Assembly: GCA_036785375.1 (NCBI GenBank)
Contig: JAWMAR010000471.1
Coordinates: forward strand, 1,054,001-1,117,815
Reading direction: 5' to 3'
DNA: 63,815 nucleotides
Source: Leucoraja ocellata
Lineage: Eukaryota
Below the pieces are notes generated by a model that was given only the letters and a program-made list of their open reading frames with translations, searched no databases and was not told the DNA's origin. Numbering within the stretch: the first letter of the stretch is position 1; each line of letters begins with the position of its first letter. Shown in pieces: positions 4,113-63,651 of this stretch. The position numbers and the translations under genes were made by a program.

Positions 4113-4864
4113 ACATGCAAGGGATGCATTCCATCCCTCATCAACAGAGCTACCCCACCTCCTGTGCCCACATGCCAAAATCATATTGAATCTTGGGTCA
4201 AAGGGAGAATGATTTACACCTACACGTATTTTCCATGTGTCTGTGTTTTCTCCATCCCTGCAGGTGACTGCATTATTTGCAATCTGTGTGTTCCCTTTCA
4301 CTGGCTCATTGACATTCGGAGGGATACCGGTACCCAGCCCGACTCTGGTCTCGCATTGACCTTTCGTCGATCTTATAAGCCGCGGTGCAGCAATTCCCAC
4401 TACCTTCGGCCGTCCAGCCTCTCATCAAACAAACAAACAGGTCTTGCACTGGCCTTGCTGCATTATTGCGGAGTTTCACAGTGGAGCGGCTGCCTCTGCT
4501 GACAAAACACCTCCGCCACCCGTTCAGTTTAGTTTATTTGTCACGTATACCGATTGGAGAGGGGACTGTGCGTTCATCCTATCTACTGCCCCCATATGTT
4601 CAGCTGCCTGAATGGTTCAGATGGTCCACTGAACGTCAGAGAAACGTCAGGGCCATATCAGATGTTTCACATCCGATTCCGGGCCACCAAACAAATCAGC
4701 AGATGTAACGATCCTCTTCTCAAACTCTTCCTCTCCTCGCACATCGATTTTCAAAAATTCCCAGAACACCGCCCGCACCGAAACGAACAGCCCAGCCTGA
4801 GGTCACCGCTCGGTTCTCCGGGATTGGCTGCAGGATCTGTCTGGCGACCTGGTTTCCAGCCTCT

Positions 4865-4899: not shown

Positions 4900-4942
4900 A
4901 TGGGAATCCTCCTATTTTTTGTGCTGTCACTCTGCTTACGCC
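4900..4942 (+). CDS. Leader exon of NAR-TCR V, cassette 1 (MGILLFFVLSLCLR)
   Basis: ATG at 4900, 14 mostly hydrophobic codons + 1 nt, then donor GTGAGT at 4943. Phase 1 matches the V exon acceptor at 5095-5096. Confidence 0.9.
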
Positions 4943-5096
4943 GTGAGTACCGGTCCCCTACTCCCACACAGTGCGGGTTTAACATAAAACAACTCGAGTC
5001 CACTCCGACCTGAATTTCAAACACTGTCCGCGATGTATCCTTCTGCCGTGGTTCGCCTGGAATTCCCACTCACCTCTCCCTGTGTTTCATCTACAG

Positions 5097-5389
5097 ACTC
5101 CTTCAGTCAGTCAGTGACCCAGAGCCCGAATGCGGTGGCTGGAAAAGAGTGTGAGTCCGTCACCATCACCTGCCTTTTCAAAGAAGGTTCCAGTGGCAGC
5201 TACGAATTTAATGTAGGAGGTTTCTTCAAGCAAGCACAACCCGGTGCTAAACGGCAACGGATCACAACAGGTGGACGGTTTGTTGTGTCGTCCAATAAAG
5301 CGGAAAAATCATTTACAGTGAAAATTATTCGTTTGAGAGTTGAGGACATGGCCACATATTACTGTCAAGCTGAGTACAGGTGGAGCATA
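5097..5389 (+). CDS. VNAR-like variable exon (NAR-TCR V), cassette 1, open frame
   Basis: Pyrimidine tract + CTACAG acceptor. Translation SVTQSPNAVAGKECESVTITC...GGRFVVS...LRVEDMATYYC has both canonical Cys, a short FR2-to-GGRF region as in VNAR (no CDR2) and an extra FR1 Cys (KECE). Followed by an RSS. Confidence 0.88.
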
Positions 5390-5428
5390 CACAGTGATGG
5401 GCCTGCGGTTCCAGCAATACAAAAAACC
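5390..5428 (+). other. V recombination signal (22/23-bp spacer)
   Basis: CACAGTG at 5390-5396, then 22 nt + ACAAAAAAC (or 23 nt + CAAAAAACC). Confidence 0.92.
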
Positions 5429-5753
5429 CTGATGGCAGATTCTAGTAGCAACGTGGAGACGCGAGGTAAATCCACCGGGTAAACCCACGGGCCCGCTTTG
5501 TCCCGCCTGCCCTGCATTCTGGGTTGTACCGGATGAAATGCGTGCGATTCAAACAATGGGGTTTCTCTATTTGGCGAGTGCGGCTGGATAATGCCCCCTG
5601 TACCGAAAATGGTGTAAACGAACTGCCATCGAGAATGACCGACCACTCTTCTGATGCACAACTCCAGACGGGATCCAGTTACACAAACTGCAATCTGAAA
5701 AATGCATTCGCTGAACGTTAATCTCCTGCCCGCCCGTCTCGCCGGGCGCCTGG

Positions 5754-5825
5754 GGATTTGAAAGTGACGTGTAACAACGTGTGGCAGTTGGGACAGCCAC
5801 AGTGTAGGAGAGTCGAGTAAAAACT
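5754..5825 (+). other. D segment TGGCAGTTGGGACAGC (5782-5797) flanked by 12-RSS on both sides
   Basis: 5': GGATTTGAA-12-CAACGTG (5754-5781). 3': CACAGTG-12-GTAAAAACT (5798-5825). Lies between V and J; the same structure recurs in cassettes 2 and 4. Confidence 0.8.
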
Positions 5826-6136
5826 CACCCCATTCAAGATATATATTCTTGGGTTTCGGAACCAAAATCATACGATTATTGTTCGTGACGCTGTCGTCCA
5901 AATAAATTACACAGGGATTACCACATTCCATTAACATTCCTTAATAATTGGTTCCCTGTTTGTCAAAACACACCGGCCTGCGTGTGGGAGATCACTCTGC
6001 TCTTAGCTCTGATTCTTAGCGGGAACCGGTCGACCCACCGAGGATTGGGGAGCAAGGACAGTTACTGGTTGGTCTGAAACTCCTGGAATAATTGGGCAGC
6101 GATTCTGATGGTTGCCGGGCAAATCGCGGTGAGGAC

Positions 6137-6239
6137 TGTTATTGTACTACGAGCATCGAGAGACGGGGCACTGTGGCTGCGGCTTCATGGAACACTTACT
6201 ATCAGGATGGGACGGGGACTACGGTGACTGTCGCAGCCG
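6137..6239 (+). other. J segment (6176-6239, AAASWNTYYQDGTGTTVTVAA) with 5' 23-RSS
   Basis: TGTTATTGT-23-CACTGTG (6137-6175), xGxGTxVTV motif, phase-1 donor GTAAGT at 6240. Confidence 0.9.
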
Positions 6240-6814
6240 GTAAGTACTCTAAACCTCTCTTATCCACGGTTGTTCTTGGAAATATTCAGTTCCCTTTAAC
6301 ATTGGATCATGAGGCATCAATTGCTTTCCAATTGAAACAGATTCTATTTATAAAGGGTTCCGGCAACTTGCTCCAGATGTTACGGTACACGTGAGTCCAA
6401 TGAGAGGATATGTCGGGCTCCCCGGGAGCACAACGTGAATCAGGTTGAAGAATAGCTTCTTCCCCAAAGCCATCAGGATCGGGAACACCACATCGCGCTA
6501 ACCACAGCTATGGATTTCTAGGCAGACACAAGTAAATGCGGACGCTGAAATCGGTTACTGAAGTCTAGATTCCAAATGTCGGCTATCAATGTTCTCCTGA
6601 AATGCTGCCTGACCCGTGGAGTTAATGCTACCACCGAACCGCCGGCTTGTTCCAACATACTCTGCGAATTTACCCTCTTGCTCTACAAGTTACTGCAGCC
6701 CTTAGTGTTCATAAACTTTTCATAATTGTCTCTGGTTATACAAAGGATTTGTGTTTTTGTTGTTGTCGCTCTAGGATGTGGCCATTAGATTATTGAGTAG
6801 TTTTTGTATCAGAC

Positions 6815-7030
6815 AGGACGACAGATGGCACAATGGGCTAAGTGTTCGGCTGGCGACCGGAAGGTAGCCGGTTCGAATCCCGCCTTGGAGTGCATACTGT
6901 CGTTGTGTCCTTGGGGCAAGACACTTCACCCACCTTTGCCTGTGTGTAATGTAATGTAATTATGTGAAGCACTTTGCGGTGAATGCAAGTTGACTGAAAT
7001 GTGCTATATAAATAAGATTATATATATATA
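6815..7030 (+). mobile_element. tRNA-derived CORE-type SINE with L2-like tail
   Basis: B-box GGTTCGAATCC, CORE-like GTGTCCTTGGGGCAAGACACTT, tail TGTGAAGCACTTT...GCTATATAAAT. Not present in the paralogous introns of cassettes 2 and 4. Confidence 0.7.
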
Positions 7031-7691
7031 GACATTATAAGAGGAATGGGTTGATCGTACGGTTGATCGTCCATCATCCAGATCGAAAACATACAACGGG
7101 GAAAGTAGTGAGCCCGACTTGACCCATTAGTCAAAGGCAGCAAGCGGAAAGATCACTTGTATTCCAATATTTGCCCTGCAACGGAAGCCTATCCTCTGTC
7201 CAGGCTGAAACCTCATCTCTAACACCAATACTCCAATTTTAATTATCCGCTTCGCGTCGGCACCAAGAAAGCTGCATTTCTGACTTGCCTTTGTCCATCC
7301 TGCTTGTTGCTATCACAAACAATTTCAACAGGGGCAAGAACCCCCCCCCCCCCCCCCACCCCGACTAGTTCTCGCTGACTTGCAAATTTTATCATGTGCT
7401 TCCAGATAGCACTGAACCGCATTTTTATAATCGTTTCAAAATCTTACAAACTATGAAGTCATGCTAACCGCCTTATCATTACAACTGGCTTATGAATGTA
7501 TCCCATAAAATCTATGGGATTGATCCACGCCCGCTGTGAGAGAAAGCCTGGGAAACAATCTATTTCTTACTCCAGGAAACAGAGGGAGGTTGGCGGGGAG
7601 TAGATGGGCTGTGAGTGAAGCTGAACCCTCTGTAAACATTCCACTAACTGAAATCAAACGACAGCTGGCAGACCTGTTGAAACGGTTCTCT

Positions 7692-7722
<31 letters not shown>

Positions 7723-8411
7723 ATATGAACTGCAAGCAGCAAAAAGGCGGGCGACCAAGATTGAAAACCAAAACTGTTCTTCAATTAAATTAAAATAAAA
7801 TGCAGAAGGACGTGGCCCAGTGAAGAAAAACCCCAACTCTTGATACATAGAGGGCAAAGGCATTTATCCCGGGTTGTGTAATTCCACTTAAAAGATGACC
7901 TTCCAGTTGTTAATCCAAGAAGGCTGTGGAGGCGAATTCAGGGGAAAATAAGGCAGCGATAGATAGATTTTTGATTAAGTCGAGGCGTCAGAGGTTTTGA
8001 CATTGCGGAGAATGGGGTCGGAGGAGACATAGGTCAGCCATTATTGAATGGCAGAGTGGGTCTGATGGGCCGAATGGCCTAATTATACTCCTTTCACATG
8101 TCCTTATGACCTTATGACCTTATGCCTTAAATGCCAACACACCACTGTTGAACCTTGACTATATCCAGGAAGGGATTACACTTCAGTCAAGTTGTGGGAG
8201 AATTACTAGTTCTATTGTTTAACGCCAAGCACAATTGCAAAACTTTGGAGAACCGACAAAAGGAATTTGTCTCAATCACCGGATCCCGACTCACTGAATC
8301 AGCTCCACTATTATCCCGTGCTCGCTTTGACTGTTCCCACAGCTGGAATATTTCCAATTTCACTTTCACAATCAGAGTTTGACCTCGGGGATATTCGTCA
8401 GTGATTTTCTC

Positions 8412-9400
8412 CACGGTGGCGCAACGGTAACGGTAGAGGTGCTGCCTAACAGCGCGTTTAGCACCAGCGACCCGAGTTCGATCCCGACCCGGTGCTGTTG
8501 GTACGGAGTTTGTATGTTCACCACACAATCTGTGTGGACTTTCTCCGAGATAGAACATAGAAACATAGAAAACAGGTGCAGGAGTAGGCTATTCGGCCCT
8601 TCGAGCATGCACCAGCCATTCAATATGATTATGGCTGATCATCCAACTCAGTATCCTGTACCTGCCTTCTCTCAATACCCCCTGATCCCTTTAGCCACAA
8701 GGGCCACATCTAACTCCCTCTTAAATATAGCCAATGAATGGCCCGCAACTACTTCTGCGGGAGAGAATTCCAGAGATTCACCACTCTCTCTGTGAAAAAA
8801 AGTTTTCCTCATCTCGGTCCTAAAAGATTTCCCCTTTATCCTTAAACTGTGAACCCTGTTCTGGACTTCCCCAACATCGGGAACAATCTTCCTGCATCTA
8901 GCCTGTCCAACCCCTTAAGAATGTTGTAAGTTTCTATAAGATCCCCCCCTCAATCGTCTAAATTCTAGCGAGTACAAACCGAGTCTATCCAGTCTTTCTT
9001 CATATGAAAGTCCTGACATCACAGGAATTAGTCTGGTGAACCTTCTCTGTACTCCCTCTAGGGCACGAATGTCTGTCCTCAGATTAGGAGACCAAAACTG
9101 TACGCAATGCTCCAGGTGTGGTCTCACCAAGACCTGTACAACTGCAGTAGAACCTCCCTGCTCCTAAATCTAGGGTATCTTCCCACACTCCAAATACGGA
9201 CAGTTTATAAGGGTTATTGGCGCTCTATAAATGTAAATATTCCATCGTGTGTGTTGGATTGTGTTAATGTGCGGGGATTGCGGGGCGGCGCTGACTTGGT
9301 GGGCCGAAGGGCCCGTTTCCGCGCTGTGTTCCTAAACTAAATTAAACTGAACTAAACTGAACTAATGTAAACTAAACCAAACTATACAAAGTAAACTAAC
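8412..9400 (+). mobile_element. HE1/V-SINE-like element split by an antisense CR1 fragment (about 8549-9167)
   Basis: tRNA-like head GGTGGCGCA...GTTCGATCC, 3' GGGCCGAAGGGCCCGTTTCC and (AAACT)n tail. Same nest at about 26740-28050 and 60455-61765, with further CR1 insertions. Confidence 0.7.
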
Positions 9401-9575
9401 CTAACGAAATTAAATCTCCACTCGTCGAGGGAACAATTAAAGGATCCATAAATAACGTTTCCATACATTTAGCAAAATGTGATGAACTACAGGATACGGT
9501 AACTAGTTTCTGTGTGTGTCACAGTCTCCAACAGTCAATGTTAAACAATAACTATTCCCCTGTTATTTTCCGCAG

Positions 9576-9917
9576 ATTCCATTTACGCGGGTTCCCAGAG
9601 TCCGCCTCACAATCCTCTCTTTCTGGTGACACTGCCACCCTTAACTGCGTATATTCCGGATTCTGCTCGTACACAGTACACTGGTACCGACAGTTCCCAG
9701 GCAGGCTCTGGAATTCCTGCTCCAAAGACACACTTCAGGAAAGCAAGATGAGGAAGAGGCTGCCGAAGGTCGTATTTCTGGTTCTCTCGATCCAGGCCAG
9801 AAATCAGTCAGTTAACTCTCTCTGAAGTACTGCCGAGCGACGAGGCTGTGTATTACTGTGGGATGAGTCCGCGCATCGCACAGTGGCACAGCGCAGCGAG
9901 ATAGCTGTACCAAAACC
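9576..9917 (+). pseudogene. Leaderless supporting TCR-delta-type V, cassette 1 (exon 9576-9878, 23-RSS 9879-9917); frameshifted in this assembly
   Basis: TTTTCCGCAG acceptor; NCVYSGFCSYTVHWYRQ...DEAVYYC; CACAGTG-23-ACCAAAACC. Three 1-nt losses in short homopolymers relative to the 29620 copy, close to a gap, so these may be consensus errors. Confidence 0.75.
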
Positions 9918-21500: not shown

Positions 21501-24164
21501 AAAAACATTTGAACACATTACACCAATTCTTAAATCCTTACATTGGCTCCCTGTATGTCAGAGAATTGATTTGAATATCCCGCTGCTCACCTATAAATTA
21601 CTACATGGATTAGGGCCAAAGTGTATCACTGACATGGTTCCACTATATAAGCCTTCTAGACCGCTAAGATCTTCTGAGACCAATCTGTTAGTCATTCCCA
21701 GAGTAAATACAAAACATGGGAAAGCAGGATTTAGTTACTATGCAACAAATAGCTGGAATAAACTTCCTGATGATTTAAGACTTGCCTCAACTTTAACCAC
21801 TTTTAAAACAAGACTGAAAACATTTAATGTTTACTTTAGCTTTCAGCTAAATCTTAACTACATTGCACTCTTAACTTTTGCACTTTTTTATAATGCACTT
21901 TTATTTTATTTTCTTTTAATTCATTTATTTTATTTCATTTTATTATTTCGTATTATTGTCTGACATGTTTTTTTATGTGAAGCACTTTGAGTCTGCCTCG
22001 TGTATGAAATGTACTATATAAATAAAGTTGCCTTGCCTTGCTTTACTCAAATCCTCTCGTATTGAAGGCCAACTTAATTTTCTTCACTACCAGGTGTACC
22101 TGAATGTTTACTTTCTGTGACTGGTGTACAAGGACACCCAGGTCTCGTTGCACATCCCTATTACCCAGTCTGACACCATTGTGACAGTAATCTGCTTCCA
22201 CGTTCTTGCCGTCAAAGTGGATAACCTCACATTTACCGACATTATACCGCATCTGCCATGAATCTGCCCACTCAATCAACCTGTCCAGGTCACCCTGCAA
22301 CCACCTAGCCTCCTCTTCGCAGTTCACAATGCCACCCAGCTTGGTGTAATCTGCAAATGTGTTCGTGTTCCTTTGTATTCCATCATCTAAATCGTTAATA
22401 TATATTGTGAATAGTTGTGGCCCCTGCACCGAGCCTTACGGCACTCCACTCGCCACTGCCTGCCATTTATGACAGGGACATCCTTCGTCAATTTTACTTG
22501 TCACATGCTCAAAAGATTCCAGAAGATTAGTCGATCAGGATTTCCCTGATGCCCTTGAGAATAATCCATCTCAGAGGCATCTCAAACTGCCTTTCTTGGG
22601 TTCCAGAATCAATCTGATTTTCTCTGTCTACCAGCATTTTTGAAACCTTCCGTAACAGCAGTGGCATTACATTTGTTACATCTCAATTTTAACTCCTGCT
22701 GCAACTTGCACCCTATATCCAAGCTACTGTTTCGGCGCCTGCAGATAACTCCCCTTGCCGACTTACCTTTTCAATTCCTCAATTCTATCCACAGCGAATT
22801 TACATCGTCCGTGGCTCTGTCAACCCTTGCATCAGCCAATCTTCCCTGTCCTGCCTGCAACTGGTCCAAAACGCCGCAGCGAGACTCCTGACGGGCACCC
22901 GAAAATGGGACCACATCACCCCGATCCTAGTCTCTCCACTGGCTCCCGCATACATTTCAAGACCCTCCTCTATGTCTACAAAGCCCTCGATGGGCTTGCC
23001 CCCTCCTACATTAAAAGTATTCTCATCCACCATACACCTCCAGGTACCACTGATCCGCGGACTTGGGGCTGCTGAATATCCCGTGGTCTAGGCATTAGCT
23101 TAGGGGCGATCGCGCCTTTGCGGTTGCAGCTCCTAGACTGTGGAACAGCATCCACCTTCCCATCAGAACTGCCCCCTCCATCGACTAAAGACAAGACTAA
23201 AATCCTATCTATACTCCCAAGCCTTTCCTGACGTCCACTGAGCGAGTGCTATATGTATATATGTATGTAGTTTGTATGTCTATACTATTCTTATAACAAA
23301 TGTAAAGCACTTTGACCAACGAGAGTTGTTGTTTAAATGTGCTATATAAATAAATGTGACTTGACTTGACTTGACATGCAAGGGATGCATCCCATCCCTC
23401 ATCAACAGAGCTACTCCACCTCCTGTGCCCACATGCCAAGATCATATTGAATCTTGGGTCAAAGGGAGAATGATTTACACCTACACGTATTTTCCATCTT
23501 TCTGTGTTTTCTCCATCCCTGCAGGTGACTGCATTATTTGCAATCTGTATGTTCCCTTTCACTGGCTCATTGACATTCGGAGGGATACCGGTACCCAGCC
23601 CGACTGTGGTCTCGCATTGACCTTTCGTCGATCTTACAAGCCGCGGTGCAGCAATTCCCACTACCTTCGGCCGTCCAGCCTGTCATCAAACAAACAAACA
23701 AACAGGTCTTGCACTGGCCTTCCTGCATTATTGCGGAGTTTCACAGGGGAGCGGCTGCCTCTGCTGACAAAACACCTCCGCCACCCGTTCAGTTTAGTTT
23801 ATTTGTCACGTATACCGATTGGAGAGGGGAATGTGCGTTCACCCTATCTACTGCCCCCATATGTTCAGCTGCCTGAATGGTTCAGATGGTCCTCTGATCG
23901 TCAGAGAAACGTCAGGGCCATATCAGATGTTTCACATCCGATTCCGGGCCACCAAACAAATCAGCAGATGTAACGATCCTCTTCTCAAACTCTCCCTCTC
24001 CTCGCACATCGATTTTCAAAAATTCCCAGAACACCGCCCGCACCGAAACGAACAGCCCAGCCTGAGGTCACCGCTCGGTTCTCCGGGATAGGCTGCAGGA
24101 TCTGTCTGGCGACCAGGTTTCCAGCCTCTCGTCACGCAAACTATTTATTCCCTGAGAAGGCGCG

Positions 24165-24686
24165 ATGGGAATCCTCCTGTTGTTTGTGCTGTCACTCTGA
24201 TTACGCCGTGAGTACCGGTCCCCTACTCCCACACAGTGCGGGTTTAACATAAAACAACTCGAGTCCACTCCGACCTGAATTTCAAACGCTGTCCGTGATG
24301 TATCCTTCTGCCGTGGTTCGCCTGGAATTCCCACTCACCTCTCCCTGTGTTTCATCTACAGACTCCTTCAGTCAGTCAGTGACCCAGAGCCCAAATGCGG
24401 TGACTGGAAAAGAGTGTGAGTCCGTCACCATCACCTGCCTTTTCCATGTTGGTTCCCGGGGTTACTACAAATTTAATGTAGGACATTTCTTCAAGCAAGC
24501 ACAACCCGGTGCTAAACGGCAACGGATCACAACAGGTGGACGGTTTGTTGTGTCAACCAATAAATTTACATTTACGTTGAAAATTCTTGGTTTGAGAGTT
24601 GAGGACAAGGCCACATATTACTGTCAAGCTGAGTACAGGTGGAGCATACACAGTGATGGGCCTGCGGTTCCATCAATACAAAAACC
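24165..24686 (+). pseudogene. NAR-TCR V, cassette 2: leader 24165-24207 with in-frame TGA, V exon 24362-24648 open, 22-RSS 24649-24686
   Basis: Leader codon 12 is TGA (24198-24200) where other copies have TGC. V exon SVTQSP...EDKATYYC is open. RSS is CACAGTG-22-ACAAAAACC. Confidence 0.85.
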
Positions 24687-25011
24687 CTGACGGCAGATTC
24701 TAGTAGCAACGTGAAGACGCTAGGTGAATCCACCGGGTAAACCCACGGGCCAACTTTGTCCCGCCTGCCCTGCATTCTGGGTTACACCGCATGAAATGCG
24801 TGCGATTCAAACAATGGGGTTTCTCTATTTGGCGAGTGCGGCTGGATAATGCCCCCTGTACCGAAAATGGTGTAAACGAACTGCCATCGAGAATGACTGA
24901 CCACTCTTCTGATGCACAACTCCAGACGGGATCCAGTTACACAAACTTCAATCTGAAAAATGCATTCGCTGAACGTTAATCTCCTGCCCGCCCGTCTCGC
25001 CGGGCGCCTGG

Positions 25012-25082
25012 GGATTTGAAAGTGACGTGTAACAACGTGTGGCAGCGGGATATCCACAGTGTAGGAGAGTCGAGTAAAAACT
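25012..25082 (+). other. D segment TGGCAGCGGGATATC (25040-25054) with 12/12 RSS, cassette 2
   Basis: GGATTTGAA-12-CAACGTG ... CACAGTG-12-GTAAAAACT. Confidence 0.8.
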
Positions 25083-25393
25083 CACCCCATTCAAGATATA
25101 TATTCTTGGGTTCCCCAACCAAAATATAACGAATATTGTTCGTGACGCTGTAGTCCAGATAAATTACACAGGGATTACCGCATTCCGTTAACATCCCTGA
25201 ATAATTGGTTCCCTGTTTGTCAAAACACACAAGCCTGCGTGTGGGAGATCACTCTGCTCTTAGCTCTGTTTCTTAGCGGGAACCGGTCGACCCACCGAGG
25301 ATTGGGAAGCAAGGACAGTCACCGGTTTGTCTGAAACTCCTGTAATAATTGGACAGCGATTCTAATGGTTGCCGGGCAAATCTTTGTGAGGAC

Positions 25394-25490
25394 TGTTCGT
25401 GTACTGCGAGCATCGAGAGACGGGGCACTGTGGATTCATGGAGCACTTACTATCAGGAAGGGACGGGGACTACGGTGACTGTCACAGCCG
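25394..25490 (+). other. J segment (25433-25490, DSWSTYYQEGTGTTVTVTA) with 23-RSS, cassette 2
   Basis: TGTTCGTGT-23-CACTGTG (degenerate nonamer); donor GTAAGT at 25491. Confidence 0.88.
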
Positions 25491-29619: not shown

Positions 29620-29925
29620 ATTCCATTTCCGCGGGTTCCCAGAGTCCGCCTCAACAATCCTCTCTTTCTGGTGACACCGCCACCTTTAACTGCGTATATT
29701 CCGGATTCTGCTCGTACACAATACACTGGTACCGACAGTTCCCAGGGCAGGCTCTGGAATTCCTGCTCCAAAGACACACTTCAGGAAAGCAAGACGAGGA
29801 AGAGGCTGCCGAAGGTCATATTTCTGGTTCTGTCGATCCTGCCCAGAAAATCAGTCAGTTAACGCTCTCTGAAGTACTGCCGAGCGACGAGGCTGTGTAT
29901 TACTGTGGGATGTGTCCGCGCATCG
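29620..29925 (+). CDS. Leaderless supporting TCR-delta-type V, cassette 2, intact
   Basis: Phase-1 acceptor in frame with the J donor. DSISAGSQSP...FNCVYSGFCSYTIHWYRQFPGQALEFLL...DEAVYYCGMCPRI, with an extra Cys in CDR1. No leader exon recognised in the J-V intron. Confidence 0.88.
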
Positions 29926-29964
29926 CACAGTGGCACAACGCAGTGAGATAGCTGTACCAAAACC
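29926..29964 (+). other. 23-RSS of supporting V, cassette 2
   Basis: CACAGTG-23-ACCAAAACC. Confidence 0.92.
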
Positions 29965-41611: not shown

Positions 41612-42078
41612 GACAGTAATATGTGGCCATGTCCTCAACTCTCAAACGAATAATTTTCACTGTAAATGATTTTTCCGCTTTATTGGACGACACAACAAAC
41701 CGTCCACCTGTTGTGATCCGTTGCCGTTTAGCACCGGGTTGTGCTTGCTTGAAGAAACCTCCTACATTAAATTCGTAGCTGCCACTGGAACCTTCTTTGA
41801 AAAGGCAGGTGATGGTGACGGACTCACACTCTTTTCCAGCCACCGCATTCGGGCTCTGGGTCACTGACTGACTGAAGGAGTCTGTAGATGAAACACAGGG
41901 AGAGGTGAGTGGGAATTCCTGGCGAACCACGGCAGAAGGATACATCGCGGACAGTGTTTGAAATTCAGGTCGGAGTGGACTCGAGTTGTTTTATGTTAAA
42001 CCCGCACTGTGTGGGAGTAGGGGACCGGTACTCACGGCGTAAGCAGAGTGACAGCACAAAAAATAGGAGGATTCCCAT
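41612..42078 (-). CDS. Inverted NAR-TCR leader (42078-42036) and V exon (41881-41612), truncated by gap
   Basis: Reverse complement of 4900-5366. Protein appears identical to cassette 1 V up to YYC. RSS, D and J would lie in or beyond the gap. Confidence 0.85.
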
Positions 42079-42832
42079 CGCGCCTTCTCCGGGAATAAAT
42101 GGTTCACGTGACGAGAGGCTGGAAACCAGGTCGCCAGACAGATCCTGCAGCCAATCCCGGAGAACCGAGCGGTGACCTCAGGCTGGGCTGTTCGTTTCGG
42201 TGCGGGCGGTGTTCTGGGAATTTTTGAAAATCGATGTGCGAGGAGAGGAAGAGTTTGAGAAGAGGATCGTTACATCTGCTGATTTGTTTGGTGGCCCGGA
42301 ATCGGATGTGAAACATCTGATATGGCCCTGACGTTTCTCTGACGTTCAGTGGACCATCTGAACCATTCAGGCAGCTGAACATATGGGGGCAGTAGATAGG
42401 ATGAACGCACAGTCCCCTCTCCAATCGGTATACGTGACAAATAAACTAAACTGAACGGGTGGCGGAGGTGTTTTGTCAGCAGAGGCAGCCGCTCCCATGT
42501 GAAACTCCGCAATAATGCAGGATGGCCAGTGCAAGACCTGTTTGTTTGTTTGTTTGATGAGAGGCTGGACGGCCGAAGGTAGTGGGAATTGCTGCACCGC
42601 GGCTTATAAGATCGACGAAAGGTCAATGCGAGACCACAGTCGGGCTGGATACTGGTATCCCTCCGAATGTCAATGAGCCAGTGAAAGGGAACACACAGAT
42701 GGCAAATAATGCAGTCAACTGCAGGGATGGAGAAAACACAGAAACATGGAATATACGTGTAGGTGTAAATCATTCTCCCTTTGACCCAAGATTCAATATG
42801 ATCTTGGCATGTGGGCACAGGAGGTGGGGTAG

Positions 42833-54700: not shown

Positions 54701-57700
54701 CTGCTTCCATGCTCTTGCCGTCAAAGTGGATAACCTCACATTTACCTACATTATGCAGCATGTGCCATGAGTCTGCCCACTCACTAAACCTGTCCAGGTC
54801 ACCTTACATCTACCTCGCATCCTATTCGCAGTTCACATTACATCCCGCCTCTGTGTCATCTGCAAATTTGCTCGTGTTACTTTTAAATCCATCAGATGTA
54901 TCATTAATATCTATTGTCAATAGCTGCGGCCCCTGCATCGAGCCTTGCGGCATTCTACTCGCCACTGCCTGCCATTCTGACAGGTAAATCCTTCATCCAT
55001 TTTACTTGTCATATTCTCAAAACATTCCAGAAGATTTGTCAAGCAGCATTTACGCTTCATAAATCCACGCCGACTTGGACCAATCTTTTAATTGTGTACA
55101 AATGCGCCGTTATTACGTCTTTGATAATTGACTCCAGCATCTTCCCCAGCTCCGATGTCAGGCCAACTGTTTTCTAACTTCCCGTTTTAGCTCTCGCTCC
55201 TTTCTTGAAAAGTGGGATAACGTCAACTACTCTCCAATCCACATGAACTGATCCTGAATCTATTGAACATTGGAAATGATCACCAATACGTCCACGATTT
55301 CTAGAGCCACGACCTTGAATCCCCTGGGATGTTGACCGTCAGATCCTAGGGATTTATCAGCCTTCAGTCCCAGCGGTTTACCCAATACTATTTATGGCCC
55401 AATGCAAATTTCTTTCAGTTTCTCCGTCTGTCTTATAGACAATAGACAATAGACAATAGGTGCAGGAGTAGGCCATTCGGCCCTTCGAGCCAGCACCGCC
55501 ATTCAATGTGATCATGACTGATCATCCCCAATCAGCACCCCGTTCCTGCCTTCTCCCCATATCCCCTAACTCCGCTATTTTTAAGAGCCCTATCTAGATC
55601 ACTCTTGAAAGCATCCAGAGATCCCGCCTCCACCGCCCTCTAAAGTAGATCATTCCACAGGCTCACCACTCTCTGTGAGATAAAGTGTTTCCTCGTATCC
55701 GTTCTAAATGGCTTACTCCTTATTCTTAAATTGTGGCCCCTGGTTCTGGACTCCCCCAACATCGGGAACATGTTTCCTGCCTCTAGCGTGTCCAGGCCCT
55801 TAACTATCTTATATGTTTCAATGAGATACCCTCTCATCCTTCTAAACTCCAGAGGGTACAAGACCAGCTGCTCTATCCTCTCAGCATATGAGAGTCCCGC
55901 CATCCCGGTAATTAACCTTGTAAACCTACGCTGAACTCCCTCAATAGCAAGAATGTCCTTCCGCAAATTAGGGGACCAAAACTGCACACAATACTCCAGA
56001 CGTGGTCTCGCTAGGACTCTGTAATACGTCTCACTAGTCTTCTAGTACATCTGGGAGATGTTTGTGTCTTAGTTAGCGAGGACGGAACTAAAGTACATGT
56101 TCAACTCTTCTGACATTTCCTTGTCACCCATAATAATATCAACTGCTTCTGCTGTTAAGGAACCCACATCTGCCTTTCCTATTCTTTTTCTCTTAACATA
56201 CCTAAATGTGTTTTTACAGCCCTTCTTTATATTCCTGGCGAGCTTACCTTTGTACTTCATCTTTTCACACCGTATTGCCCTTTCTGTTACTTCTGATGTT
56301 TCCCAATCATCTAGCTTCCCGCCATTCTTTGCTATTTTATTCATCTTTTCCTTTAGTTTTATACCGTCCGCAACATCCCTTGTCAGCCACGGTTGCCTCT
56401 TACACCCTTTAGAATAGTTCTTCATCTTTGGACTGAAATGATCCTGCATTTTCTGCATAATGGTCAGAAATTCCTGCTATTGCTGTTTCTCCGTCATTCC
56501 TGTTTGAATCATTCCCCAGTCGACCTTGGCCAGCTTTTCTCTCATGCCGTCATAGACCCCCTTGTTCAACGGCAACACTGACAATTCTGATTTAACTTTC
56601 TCCCTCTCAAATTGCAGATTAAAACTTATCATATGATGGTCACTACCTCCTTGCGGTTCCTTACCTAGATTTCCCCTACTAAATTTGGTGGATTAGACAA
56701 CACTAAATCCAGAATTGCATTCTCTCTTGTATGCTCCAATGCAAGTTGCTTTAAAAATCCATCTCAGAGGCACTCTACAAACTCCCTTTCTTGTGTTCCA
56801 GAACCAACCTGATTTCAGTCAGTCCCTCTATCAACCCTCGCAAGGGCGTCCATTTCACCCTCACCAACAGAGCTACCCCACCTCCAGTGCCCAAATGCCT
56901 GGATCATATTGAATGTCAGTGCTGTCTCGAAAGGAGAATGACCTACGCATACAGCTATTTTCTGTGGTTCTGTGTTTCACCATCCCTGCTGGTGACTGCA
57001 TTCATTGCAATCTGTGTGTTACCTTTCACTGGGTCATTGACAGTCGGAATTATACCGGTACCCAACCCGACTGGGGCCTCGCGTTGACCTTTCGTCGATG
57101 TTATAAGCCGCGGTGCAGCAATTCCCACCACCTTTGGCCGTCCAGCCTCTCATCAAACAAACAAACAATAAAACAGGCCTTGCACTGGCCGTCCTGCATC
57201 ATTGCGGAGTTGCACAGGGGAGCGGCTGCCTCGGCTGACAAAACACCTCCGCCACCCGTTCAGTTTAGTTTATTTGTCACTTATACCAAGGTACAGAGAA
57301 AGACGTTTGTTGCATACTACCCAATCAGTGGAGAGAAAATACATGGTAACAATCGAACCATTCACAGTGTACATCTACATGATAAGGGAATACAGTGCAA
57401 GATAAAGCCATCAGTCCGATAAGGTTAATCAGAGGGTCAGCGTTGAGATAGATAGTAGTGCAGGATTGCTCTCTAGTTGTGGCAGGATGGTTCAGTTGCC
57501 TGATAACCGCTGGGAAGACAATCTCCCTGAATCTGGAGGTGTGAGTTTGCACACTCCTATATATTCTGCCCGATTGGAGCGAGGACTGTGCGTTCACCCT
57601 ATCCACTACCCCCCCCCCCCCCCCCCCAATATGTTCAGAAGCCTGAATTGTTCAAATTGTCTACTGAACGTCAGAGAAACGTCAGAACCACATCAGATGT

Positions 57701-57940: not shown

Positions 57941-58462
57941 ATGGGAATCATCCTGTTGTTTGTGCTGTCACTCTGCTTACGCCGTGAGTACCGGTCCCCT
58001 ACTCCCACACAGTGCGGGTTTAACATAAAACAACTCGAGTCCACTCCGACCTGAATTTCAAACGCTGCCCGCGATGTGTCCTTCTGCCATAGTTCGCCTC
58101 GAATTCCCACTCACCTCTCCCTGTGTTTAATCTACAGACTCCTTCAGTCAGTCAGTGACCCAGAGCCCGAATGCGGTGGCTGGAAAAGAGTGTGAGTTCG
58201 TCACCATCACCTGCCTTTTCCAAGAAGGTTCCCGGGGTTACTACGAATTTAATGTAGGACATTTCTTCAAGCAAGCACAACCCGGTGCTAAACGGCAACG
58301 GATCACAACAGGTGGACGGTTTGTTGTGTCAACCAATAAATTTACATTTACGTTGAAAATTCTTGGTTTGAGAGTTGAGGACATGGCCACATATTACTGT
58401 CAAGCTGAGTACAGGTGGAGCATACACAGTGATGGGCGTGCGGTTCCAGCAATACAAAAACC
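57941..58462 (+). CDS. NAR-TCR V, cassette 4: leader 57941-57983, V exon 58138-58424, 22-RSS 58425-58462; intact
   Basis: MGIILLFVLSLCLR with GTGAGT donor; SVTQSPNAVAGKECEFVTITC...EDMATYYCQAEYRWSI; CACAGTG-22-ACAAAAACC. Confidence 0.88.
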
Positions 58463-58787
58463 CTGACGGCAGATTCTAGTAGCAACGTGAAGACGCGAGG
58501 TGAATCCACCGGGTAAACACACGGGCCCGCTTTGTCCCGCCTGCCCTGCATTCTGGGTTGCACCGGATGAAATGCGTGCGATTCAAACAATGGGGTTTCT
58601 CTATTTGGCGAGTGCGGCTGGATAATGCCCCCTGTACCGAAAATGGTGGAAACCAACTGCCATCGAGAATGACTGACCACTCTTCTGATGCACAACTCCA
58701 GACGGGATCCAGTTACACAAACTTCAATCTGAAAAATGCATTCGCTGAACGTTAATCTCCTGCCCGCCCGTCTCGCCGGGCGCCTGG

Positions 58788-58858
58788 GGATTTGAAAGTG
58801 ACGTGTAACAACGTGTGGCAGCTGGATATCCACAGTGTAGGAGAGTCGAGTAAAAACT
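58788..58858 (+). other. D segment TGGCAGCTGGATATC (58816-58830) with 12/12 RSS, cassette 4
   Basis: Same RSS pair as the other D segments. Confidence 0.8.
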
Positions 58859-59169
58859 CACCCCATTCAAGATATATATTCTTGGGTTCCCCAACCAAAA
58901 TATAACGATTATTGTTCGTGACGCTGTAGTCCAGATAAATTACACAGGGATTACCACATTCCGTTAACATTCCTTAATAATTGGTTCCGTGTTTGTCAAA
59001 ACGCACAAGCCTGCGTGTGGGAGATCACTCTGCTCTTAGCACTGTTTCTTAGCGGGAACCGGTCGACCCACCGAGGTTTGGGGAGCAAGGCCATTTACTG
59101 GTTGGTCTGAAACTCCTGGAATAATTGGACAGCGATTCTAATGGTTGCCGGGCAAATCTATGTGAGGAC

Positions 59170-59266
59170 TGTTCGTGTACTGCGAGCATCGAGAGACGGG
59201 GCACTGTGGATTCATGGAGCACTTACTATCATGAAGGGACGGGGACTACGGTGACTGTCACAGCCG
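59170..59266 (+). other. J segment (59209-59266, DSWSTYYHEGTGTTVTVTA) with 23-RSS, cassette 4
   Basis: TGTTCGTGT-23-CACTGTG; donor GTAAGT at 59267. Confidence 0.88.
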
Positions 59267-63307: not shown

Positions 63308-63651
63308 ATACATTTCCGCGGGTTCCCAGAGTCCGCCTCAACAATCCTCTCTTTCTGGTGACACTGCCACCTTTAACTGCGTATATTCCGGATTCTGCTC
63401 GTACACAGTACACTGGTACCGACAGTTCCCAGGGCAGGCTCTGGAATTCCTGCTCCAAAGACACACTTCAGGAAAGCAAGACGAGGAAGAGGCTGCCGAA
63501 GGTCGTATTTCTGGTTCTCTCGATCCTGCCCAGAAAATCAGTCAGTTAACGCTCTCTGAATTACTGCCGAGCGACGAGGCTGTGTATTACTGTGGGATGA
63601 GTCCGCGCATCGCACAGTGGCACAGCGCAGTGAGATAGCTGTACCAAAACC
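63308..63651 (+). pseudogene. Leaderless supporting V, cassette 4 (exon 63308-63612, 23-RSS 63613-63651) with a 1-nt loss at the exon start
   Basis: AG|ATACATTTCC versus AG|ATTCCATTTCC in cassette 2 shifts the frame. The rest reads intact (AGSQSP...YYCGMSPRI). Confidence 0.78.

Follow-up and report, generated by a model that had tools for sequence, protein, structure and literature searches.

A stretch of 63,815 nucleotides from the skate Leucoraja ocellata (the window; positions 1,054,001-1,117,815 of contig JAWMAR010000471.1, here C471, in assembly GCA_036785375.1, with window positions counted from 1) carries V, D and J segments arranged as cassettes of NAR-TCR, a form of T-cell receptor (TCR) delta chain. 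These cassettes very probably belong to a tandem NAR-TCR array in which the copies in the window are unjoined and several copies upstream of it have been joined in advance, likely by RAG acting in germ cells, with expression, a disulphide between the two V domains and function predicted. The cassette at window positions 4900-9917 (cassette 1), which was flagged in the initial annotation, is an ordinary member of the known NAR-TCR system and is broken as assembled. The NAR-TCR cassette itself is known; what is new here is the presence of complementary, probably inherited joins, VD-J and V-DJ, in a TCR locus.

NAR-TCR, reportedly described by Criscitiello in 2006, is a doubly rearranging TCR-delta of cartilaginous fish. 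The stretches analysed were C471:814k-1,528k, C2754:1-110k, C1182:240k-348k and the contig C5524; a search of the genome with the NAR V returned 20 NAR-family matches, all inside these stretches, and the census drawn from them holds 19 cassettes with a complete V. Recombination signal sequences (RSSs) were scanned for with a general consensus.

Cassettes in the window

The segments recognized in the window are as follows.

4900..4942, + strand: cassette 1 leader exon of 43 nt (14 codons plus 1 nt, phase 1)
5097..5389, + strand: cassette 1 NAR-TCR V, open, with the a-b loop Cys (KEC) and without the WYRK Trp (FFKQ)
5390..5427, + strand: 23-type RSS of the cassette 1 NAR V, with a 22-nt spacer and one nonamer mismatch
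5754..5825, + strand: cassette 1 single D region, with a degenerate 5' 12-RSS (heptamer 5775-5781), a 16-nt D (5782-5797) and a 3' 12-RSS (5798-5825)
6137..6239, + strand: cassette 1 23-RSS (6137-6175) and J (6176-6239), with a phase-1 donor at 6240
9576..9917, + strand: cassette 1 leaderless supporting V-delta (9576-9878) with a phase-1 acceptor, and its 23-RSS
24165..25490, + strand: cassette 2 leader-V-D-J, unjoined, with TGA at leader codon 12
29620..29964, + strand: cassette 2 supporting V-delta, open, with a Cys in complementarity-determining region 1 (CDR1) and a 23-RSS
41612..42078, - strand: inverted leader and V, interrupted by an N stretch
57941..59266, + strand: cassette 3 leader-V-D-J, unjoined and open
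63308..63651, + strand: cassette 3 supporting V-delta, lacking 1 nt near its start in the assembly, with a 23-RSS

The order proposed in the initial annotation for 4900-9917 (leader, VNAR-like V, single D and J, then a leaderless V with its own 23-RSS) is borne out by the RSS and splice anatomy. The same layout occurs three times in the window, with 3.3-4.1 kb between J and the second V (a 3,336-nt intron in cassette 1), and all three complete cassettes show the 23-12/12-23 arrangement of RSSs. Between 4900 and 9917 there are two RSSs with at most one nonamer mismatch and five with at most three, and neither count was matched in any of 1000 first-order Markov simulations. The second V is leaderless, as had been claimed: no leader for it was found in the three J-to-V introns, which hold 1, 2 and 2 ATG-to-GT candidates with a best hydrophobicity of 1.0 vs 3.16 for the true leader. 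The inverted fragment at 41612..42078 is 98.6% identical to cassette 1 across 1.2 kb and is possibly an uncollapsed allele.

The description of these cassettes as complete does not hold for the assembled sequence. Copy 2 has the TGA in its leader, the second V of copy 3 is 1 nt short, and the flagged second V is frameshifted and interrupted by a premature stop; as assembled, none of the three cassettes is open from end to end. Both the J donor and the second V acceptor of cassette 1 are in phase 1, as had been stated, but the frame that was said to continue through them is broken in the second V, which measures 303 nt vs 306 in its intact paralogues. The three 1-bp losses and the stop are probably consensus errors, because private 1-bp losses in homopolymers cluster beside an N stretch (five in about 680 nt, compared with none in the 1,800 nt of the cassette 1 leader-V-D-J) and because the indels of the best match on C1182 are not the same ones.

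Identity as NAR-TCR

When compared with PDB sequences the first V matched one multi-domain single-chain diabody (scDb) best, followed by five VNARs among the next six (best E 9e-15). The nearest protein models, those of Amblyraja radiata, are 82-88% identical to the first V (best matches, 13 of 44 candidates covered) and 86-92% identical to the second (30 of 125 covered), in keeping with the initial assignment of the DNA to a skate or ray. These protein searches turned up two-V models in skates, a sawfish, sharks and a chimaera, so the suggestion that automated annotation misses such genes is only partly right: NCBI models of the two-V form do exist, yet under wrong names. One of them, a Mustelus model (P0030), reads leader-V-J-V-J-constant-transmembrane, and the two V's of the window are 56% and 57% identical to its domains 1 and 2. 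A tree built from 36 V domains groups the NAR V's in one clade (support 100/99) and the supporting V's in another (94/94), apart from 12 ordinary V's of the same locus; window sequences adjoin those of A. radiata. The proposed phylogeny of the two V types thus resolved them into separate clades, each with two-V models of sharks, rays and chimaera.

PMC1845163 lists as marks of the NAR V a leader, the a-b loop Cys and the absence of the WYRK Trp, and as marks of the associated V-delta the lack of a leader and a Cys in CDR1. Open NAR V's of the skate array carry KEC in the a-b loop and FFKQ, FVKQ or FFKR in place of a motif with the WYRK Trp; the supporting V-deltas are leaderless, have the CDR1 Cys and possess their own RSS. 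Every testable feature of that list was found, namely an IgNAR-related V with a leader, the Cys marks, D and J segments of its own, a leaderless V-delta and a position in the alpha/delta locus, and the NAR-TCR organisation proposed at the outset was confirmed to that extent.

As to the locus, C471 continues downstream of the array with ordinary V's, two 12/23 D's and one J beside them; the same scaffold also carries a C-alpha-like exon and 12-RSS J's by the dozen. The single C-delta match, obtained with the constant part of P0030 as query, has a transmembrane exon and lies together with four near-identical 12-RSS J's on the unplaced 28-kb contig C5524, which likely belongs in the C471 gap near 1,362k-1,394k. 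From the NAR-TCR marks, the two-clade tree and the D, J and C-alpha-like neighbours we infer that the array is NAR-TCR within the TCR alpha/delta locus and is linked to C-delta.

Partly joined cassettes

Among the 19 cassettes ten are unjoined, three have V fused to D, four have D fused to J, one may be an older V-D fusion and one is without D and J. On C471 the joined cassettes lie 9-50 kb upstream of the window, the nearest D-J fusion ending about 9 kb upstream of it. The seven fused cassettes, with short labels in brackets, are:

C471:1,004,466-1,005,416: VD-J cassette (1,004.9k)
C471:1,019,975-1,023,064: VD-J cassette (1,020.4k)
C2754:30,853-27,784, - strand: VD-J cassette (30.4k)
C471:1,031,097-1,036,224: V-DJ cassette, D-J frame open (1,032.0k)
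C471:1,044,152-1,045,113: V-DJ cassette, D-J frame open (1,045.0k)
C2754:5,352-234, - strand: V-DJ cassette, D-J frame open (4.5k)
C2754:19,943-15,157, - strand: V-DJ cassette, D-J frame open (19.1k)

The distance from the second Cys of the V to the J donor separates the forms, being 855-878 nt in the ten unjoined cassettes, 479-481 nt in the three VD cassettes and 490 nt in the four DJ cassettes. At the VD joint the V is intact to within 0-1 nt of the heptamer position of its paralogues, the D is short by 2-3 nt and the frame is open; the 23-RSS, the spacer and the 5' 12-RSS of D are gone, and the 3' 12-RSS and J are retained. The DJ joint comprises the full 16-nt D, two extra nucleotides and an untrimmed J, which starts as in the unjoined J at C1182:335.1k, and the frame is again open; here the 12-RSS, spacer and 23-RSS are gone, and V, the V RSS and the 5' RSS of D remain. 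Both kinds of join obey the 12/23 rule. In the whole genome the VD joint occurs three times with no mismatch and the DJ joint four times with at most one; reversed controls gave no occurrence of either.

Copies of the VD cassette are 97-98% identical and those of the DJ cassette 96.1-97.1% identical over 1.7 kb, both kinds being present on C471 as well as on C2754, and two of the DJ copies stand within a 12.3-kb tandem duplication of 96.9% identity. C2754 is colinear with C471, the two sharing their ordinary V genes and the order of these, and it probably represents the second haplotype. Since three and four distinct sequences were recovered, there would be at least two loci of each kind, though the two VD copies of C471, which lie on either side of an N stretch, could have come from a single locus that was assembled in duplicate. 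The V's of the VD and DJ cassettes fall in different clades, each with unjoined relatives, which implies at least two joining events. Because the same joint recurs unchanged in diverged duplicates, the joins appear to be inherited and not somatic. An inherited joint made by RAG in the germ line is likely the best account of the partly joined cassettes; the criteria used for the joints are those applied in PMC2193156 to germ-cell RAG joins in shark immunoglobulin (Ig) genes.

The V of the VD family is distinct, its CDR1 reading QIHFWGSYRLQAG, and is also found in models of A. radiata (P0007) and L. erinacea (P0008). The A. radiata copy is predicted to be unjoined, because P0007 reads through the V heptamer (HSDGP). 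A protein search with the VD read-through frame scored none of its five candidates. In a Rhinoraja longicauda model (P0017) the V is followed by J and an RSS read-through motif is lacking; it may represent a fully pre-joined NAR V-D-J or only a predicted splice.

Alternative explanations

Several other origins of the fused cassettes were weighed. That they are somatic rearrangements from lymphocyte DNA, or chimeras of the assembly, the inherited array being unjoined throughout, might be supposed from the reliance on a single fragmented and error-bearing assembly in which no joint was confirmed by an independent run, and from the fact that incomplete rearrangements, V-D or D-J, are common in the IgH of shark thymocytes (PMC2435157). 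Joins formed independently in somatic cells would not be alike, however, and here one joint is common to three copies and another to four, on two contigs and with 2-4% substitution among the copies, two DJ copies moreover being enclosed in the tandem duplication; we regard this origin as very improbable. Retrotransposition is a misfit, since the leader intron, one spacer and two RSSs are still present, as is the flanking array. Ordinary germ-line deletion near the segment ends, without RAG, has in its favour the absence of proven P bases and the cassette at C471:1,126.6k, in which D and J were removed by a deletion that breaks just inside the RSS spacer. It would nevertheless have to excise exactly one facing 12/23 RSS pair in each of two independent events and leave all four ends 0-3 nt from the heptamers; by a rough estimate some 32 such end pairs exist among about 400,000 in a 900-nt span, or near 1e-4 per event, and we rate such deletions as quite unlikely to account for the fusions.

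Two further explanations concern the array as a whole. An IgNAR cluster consists of a V followed by three D's, a J and Ig constant exons. The leader-V-D-J unit could on this pattern be an orphaned cluster of IgNAR, with a V-delta of separate origin, deprived of its leader, as the second V; but the cassettes have a single D, their J's are without the WGxG/FGxG motif, and no Ig constant exon was seen between or after them, either in a motif scan of the analysed stretch or among the 150 scored of 618 candidates in a genome search with the Pfam C1-set, none of which is on C471. The V-J-V pairing and both cysteines are, in addition, kept across sharks, rays and a chimaera, and the orphan cluster has next to no likelihood left. 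A less improbable, though still unlikely, view is that the array is NAR-TCR by descent and largely dead in this skate, the flagged cassette and the joins being functionless: none of the three window cassettes, and only one of the nine unjoined cassettes with a second V of its own, is open throughout. Against it, the concentration of the private homopolymer losses in cassette 1 around the second V and the different indels of its C1182 counterpart point to consensus error, and of the five joined cassettes for which a second V is assembled, four are open from end to end.

A number of observations weigh against an inherited, functional NAR-TCR array as we read it. The 5' RSS of the cassette 1 D is degenerate, with two heptamer and four nonamer mismatches, and its somatic use is predicted only. 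In the 36-V tree the support of the supporting-V clade is just below the starred cut-off and long branches meet, and the references were two-V models of other elasmobranchs and a chimaera, without a nurse-shark NAR-TCR sequence. C-delta was not found on C471 in the analysed stretch, and the Pfam C1-set search did not recover it among the 150 of 618 candidates that were scored. The two extra bases of the DJ joint are GT in three copies and GC in one; they were considered as P nucleotides, but the copy with GC, which would be the P addition, is nested among GT copies, which leaves P addition unproven. The ends of D and J differ among the paralogues, and trimming is consequently known only to within a few bases. 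The joins rest on one assembly, which has indel errors and misoriented blocks. Among the sequencing runs listed, all from relatives, the best shared 0.41 of the query's sequence words; four of 24 were compared with the VD cassette. Three contig sets of relatives covered 30 of its 30 bins, and in two of them a 225-nt piece of the VD-family V with 2-3 differences ends about 10 nt before the joint and is silent on the joined or unjoined state; among the matches listed, no contig bridges the VD joint. An RNA run of another species, of which about 5% was read, gave zero depth on the exons of the VD cassette and has no bearing on expression.

Proposed rearrangement and function

Both V domains of NAR-TCR are described as somatically rearranged (PMC1845163). 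From the anatomy of the segments and from that description, RAG would in an unjoined cassette join the NAR V (23-RSS) to D (12-RSS on either side) and D to J (23-RSS) within the cassette, and in a second rearrangement the leaderless supporting V (23-RSS) would be joined to D-delta and J-delta. Splicing, in phase 1 throughout, would then yield an L-VDJ-VDJ-C-delta message and a three-domain delta chain. A link between the a-b loop Cys and the CDR1 Cys is predicted to hold the two V domains to each other. The chain's predicted partner is TCR-gamma, and the NAR V would then act by itself as a single-domain binder. In a pre-joined VD-J or V-DJ cassette, which presumably arose by RAG cutting in ancestral germ cells and then spread by duplication, one somatic join would complete the NAR domain; as one join suffices, half of the NAR CDR3 would be inherited.

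We put forward more tentatively, and at rather less than even confidence, that RAG worked on the TCR-delta locus of skate germ cells on at least two and perhaps three occasions, fixing the complementary half-joined cassettes, and that these, which are among the best-preserved copies of the array, may provide early or innate-like gamma-delta T cells with a single-domain binder whose CDR3 is half inherited. The greater openness of joined than of unjoined cassettes is a hint only, because several of the failures among the unjoined ones are probably errors.

Other features of the array and locus

The cassette at C471:924,630-928,014 is divergent and open; its V passes into a degenerate 12-RSS that faces J. 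The score of its spacer against the D-J spacer of cassette 1 was reached by 1 of 300 shuffles and that against the V-D spacer by 119 of 300; against the two spacers of the 917k cassette the figures were 51 and 291 of 300. This cassette is possibly a third, older VD join. The cassette at C471:1,126,587-1,130,143 belongs to the DJ clade and has D and J deleted, with the break just before the D heptamer and a frameshift in V, and that at C471:1,232,222-1,233,542 has a fast-diverged V (branch 0.51), an altered heptamer and a J that is short, and lacks a second V between that J and the following cassette.

A 12-RSS look-alike with a weak nonamer is present in the leader intron at window positions 4967, 24232, 42011 (- strand) and 58008. 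Its use as a route to delete the NAR V-D-J, thereby handing the leader to the second V, is unsupported: the nonamer has three mismatches, the heptamer is altered in 4 of 17 copies and absent in 1 of 17, and the spacer is shortened in another. A stretch of about 250 nt resembling a V relic, with an acceptor, HYCG, a heptamer-like sequence and an 18-nt spacer, lies 5' of many leaders and was duplicated with them (window 4260-4510, 23520-23780, 42470-42750 on the - strand, and 56985-57260); it gave no significant match among the proteins compared.

Between C471:1,362k and 1,518k, blocks of D-delta, J and C-alpha-like sequence alternate in orientation across 200-N stretches, likely as a result of scaffolding flips, and an expansion of one J family at C471:1,457k-1,490k has left more than 30 copies that are nearly identical. 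Nine weak matches (71-73%) to the 3' half of the NAR V, on C2073, C2063 and C7, are possibly IgNAR clusters.

Comparison with known systems

The skate array shares with NAR-TCR as described in PMC1845163 the leader, the VNAR-like V with its a-b loop Cys, the separate D and J, the leaderless V-delta with a CDR1 Cys and the alpha/delta location. It differs in having expanded recently, its copies being 93-98% identical, and in the partial joining of 7 of the 19 cassettes. Its joints resemble those of the germline-joined Ig genes of sharks and skates (PMC2193156, PMC5192425) in that RSSs are fully excised, trimming is small and introns are kept, and in that joined and split genes stand side by side, the joining having taken place within a small cluster. 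The forms listed there are VD-J, VD-DJ, VDJ and VJ; the lone V-DJ seen here is not among them.

Table S1 of PMC12227049 has a great white shark row 'NARTCR V(gj)V(gi)V', in which 'gj' most likely means germline-joined because the paper uses it so for Hyco-gjH; a pre-joined NAR-TCR V had thus probably already been noticed. That entry is a label, with no joint and no partial forms, and the main text uses 'germline-joined' once, for ratfish IgM. In the same table the gj mark is absent from the three rows for stingray NARTCR V, and the presence of NAR-TCR in batoids is therefore already in print. The view that the batoid layout is poorly documented must be qualified to this extent, and stands in so far as no paper was found in the literature on the skate array, on partly joined NAR-TCR cassettes or on the V-DJ form, although primary NAR-TCR papers and their supplements may mention joined forms.

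Inherited joined segments in a TCR locus, together with two V domains, are also a property of TCR-mu of marsupials (PMC7615758), in which it is the supporting (second) V that is fully joined, most likely by retrotransposition. In the skate, by contrast, the half join concerns the first, antigen-binding V and was made in place, the leader intron, one spacer and two RSSs being kept. Joined TCR segments are inherited in the newt TRD V-J (PMC12698447) and in catfish germline TCR (PMC6170632) as well.

The pre-joined paralogues outweigh the flagged cassette in importance. A single TCR cassette is present in unjoined, VD-J and V-DJ form, the forms being adjacent to one another and 86-92% identical. 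They make up a natural series, which allows one to ask whether RAG in germ cells acts on any V-D-J cluster of tight spacing irrespective of receptor class, at what time it acted, and whether there is a preference for pre-joined cassettes in early T cells. If the joins are inherited, some T cells of this skate would be provided with a binding domain that is already half made.

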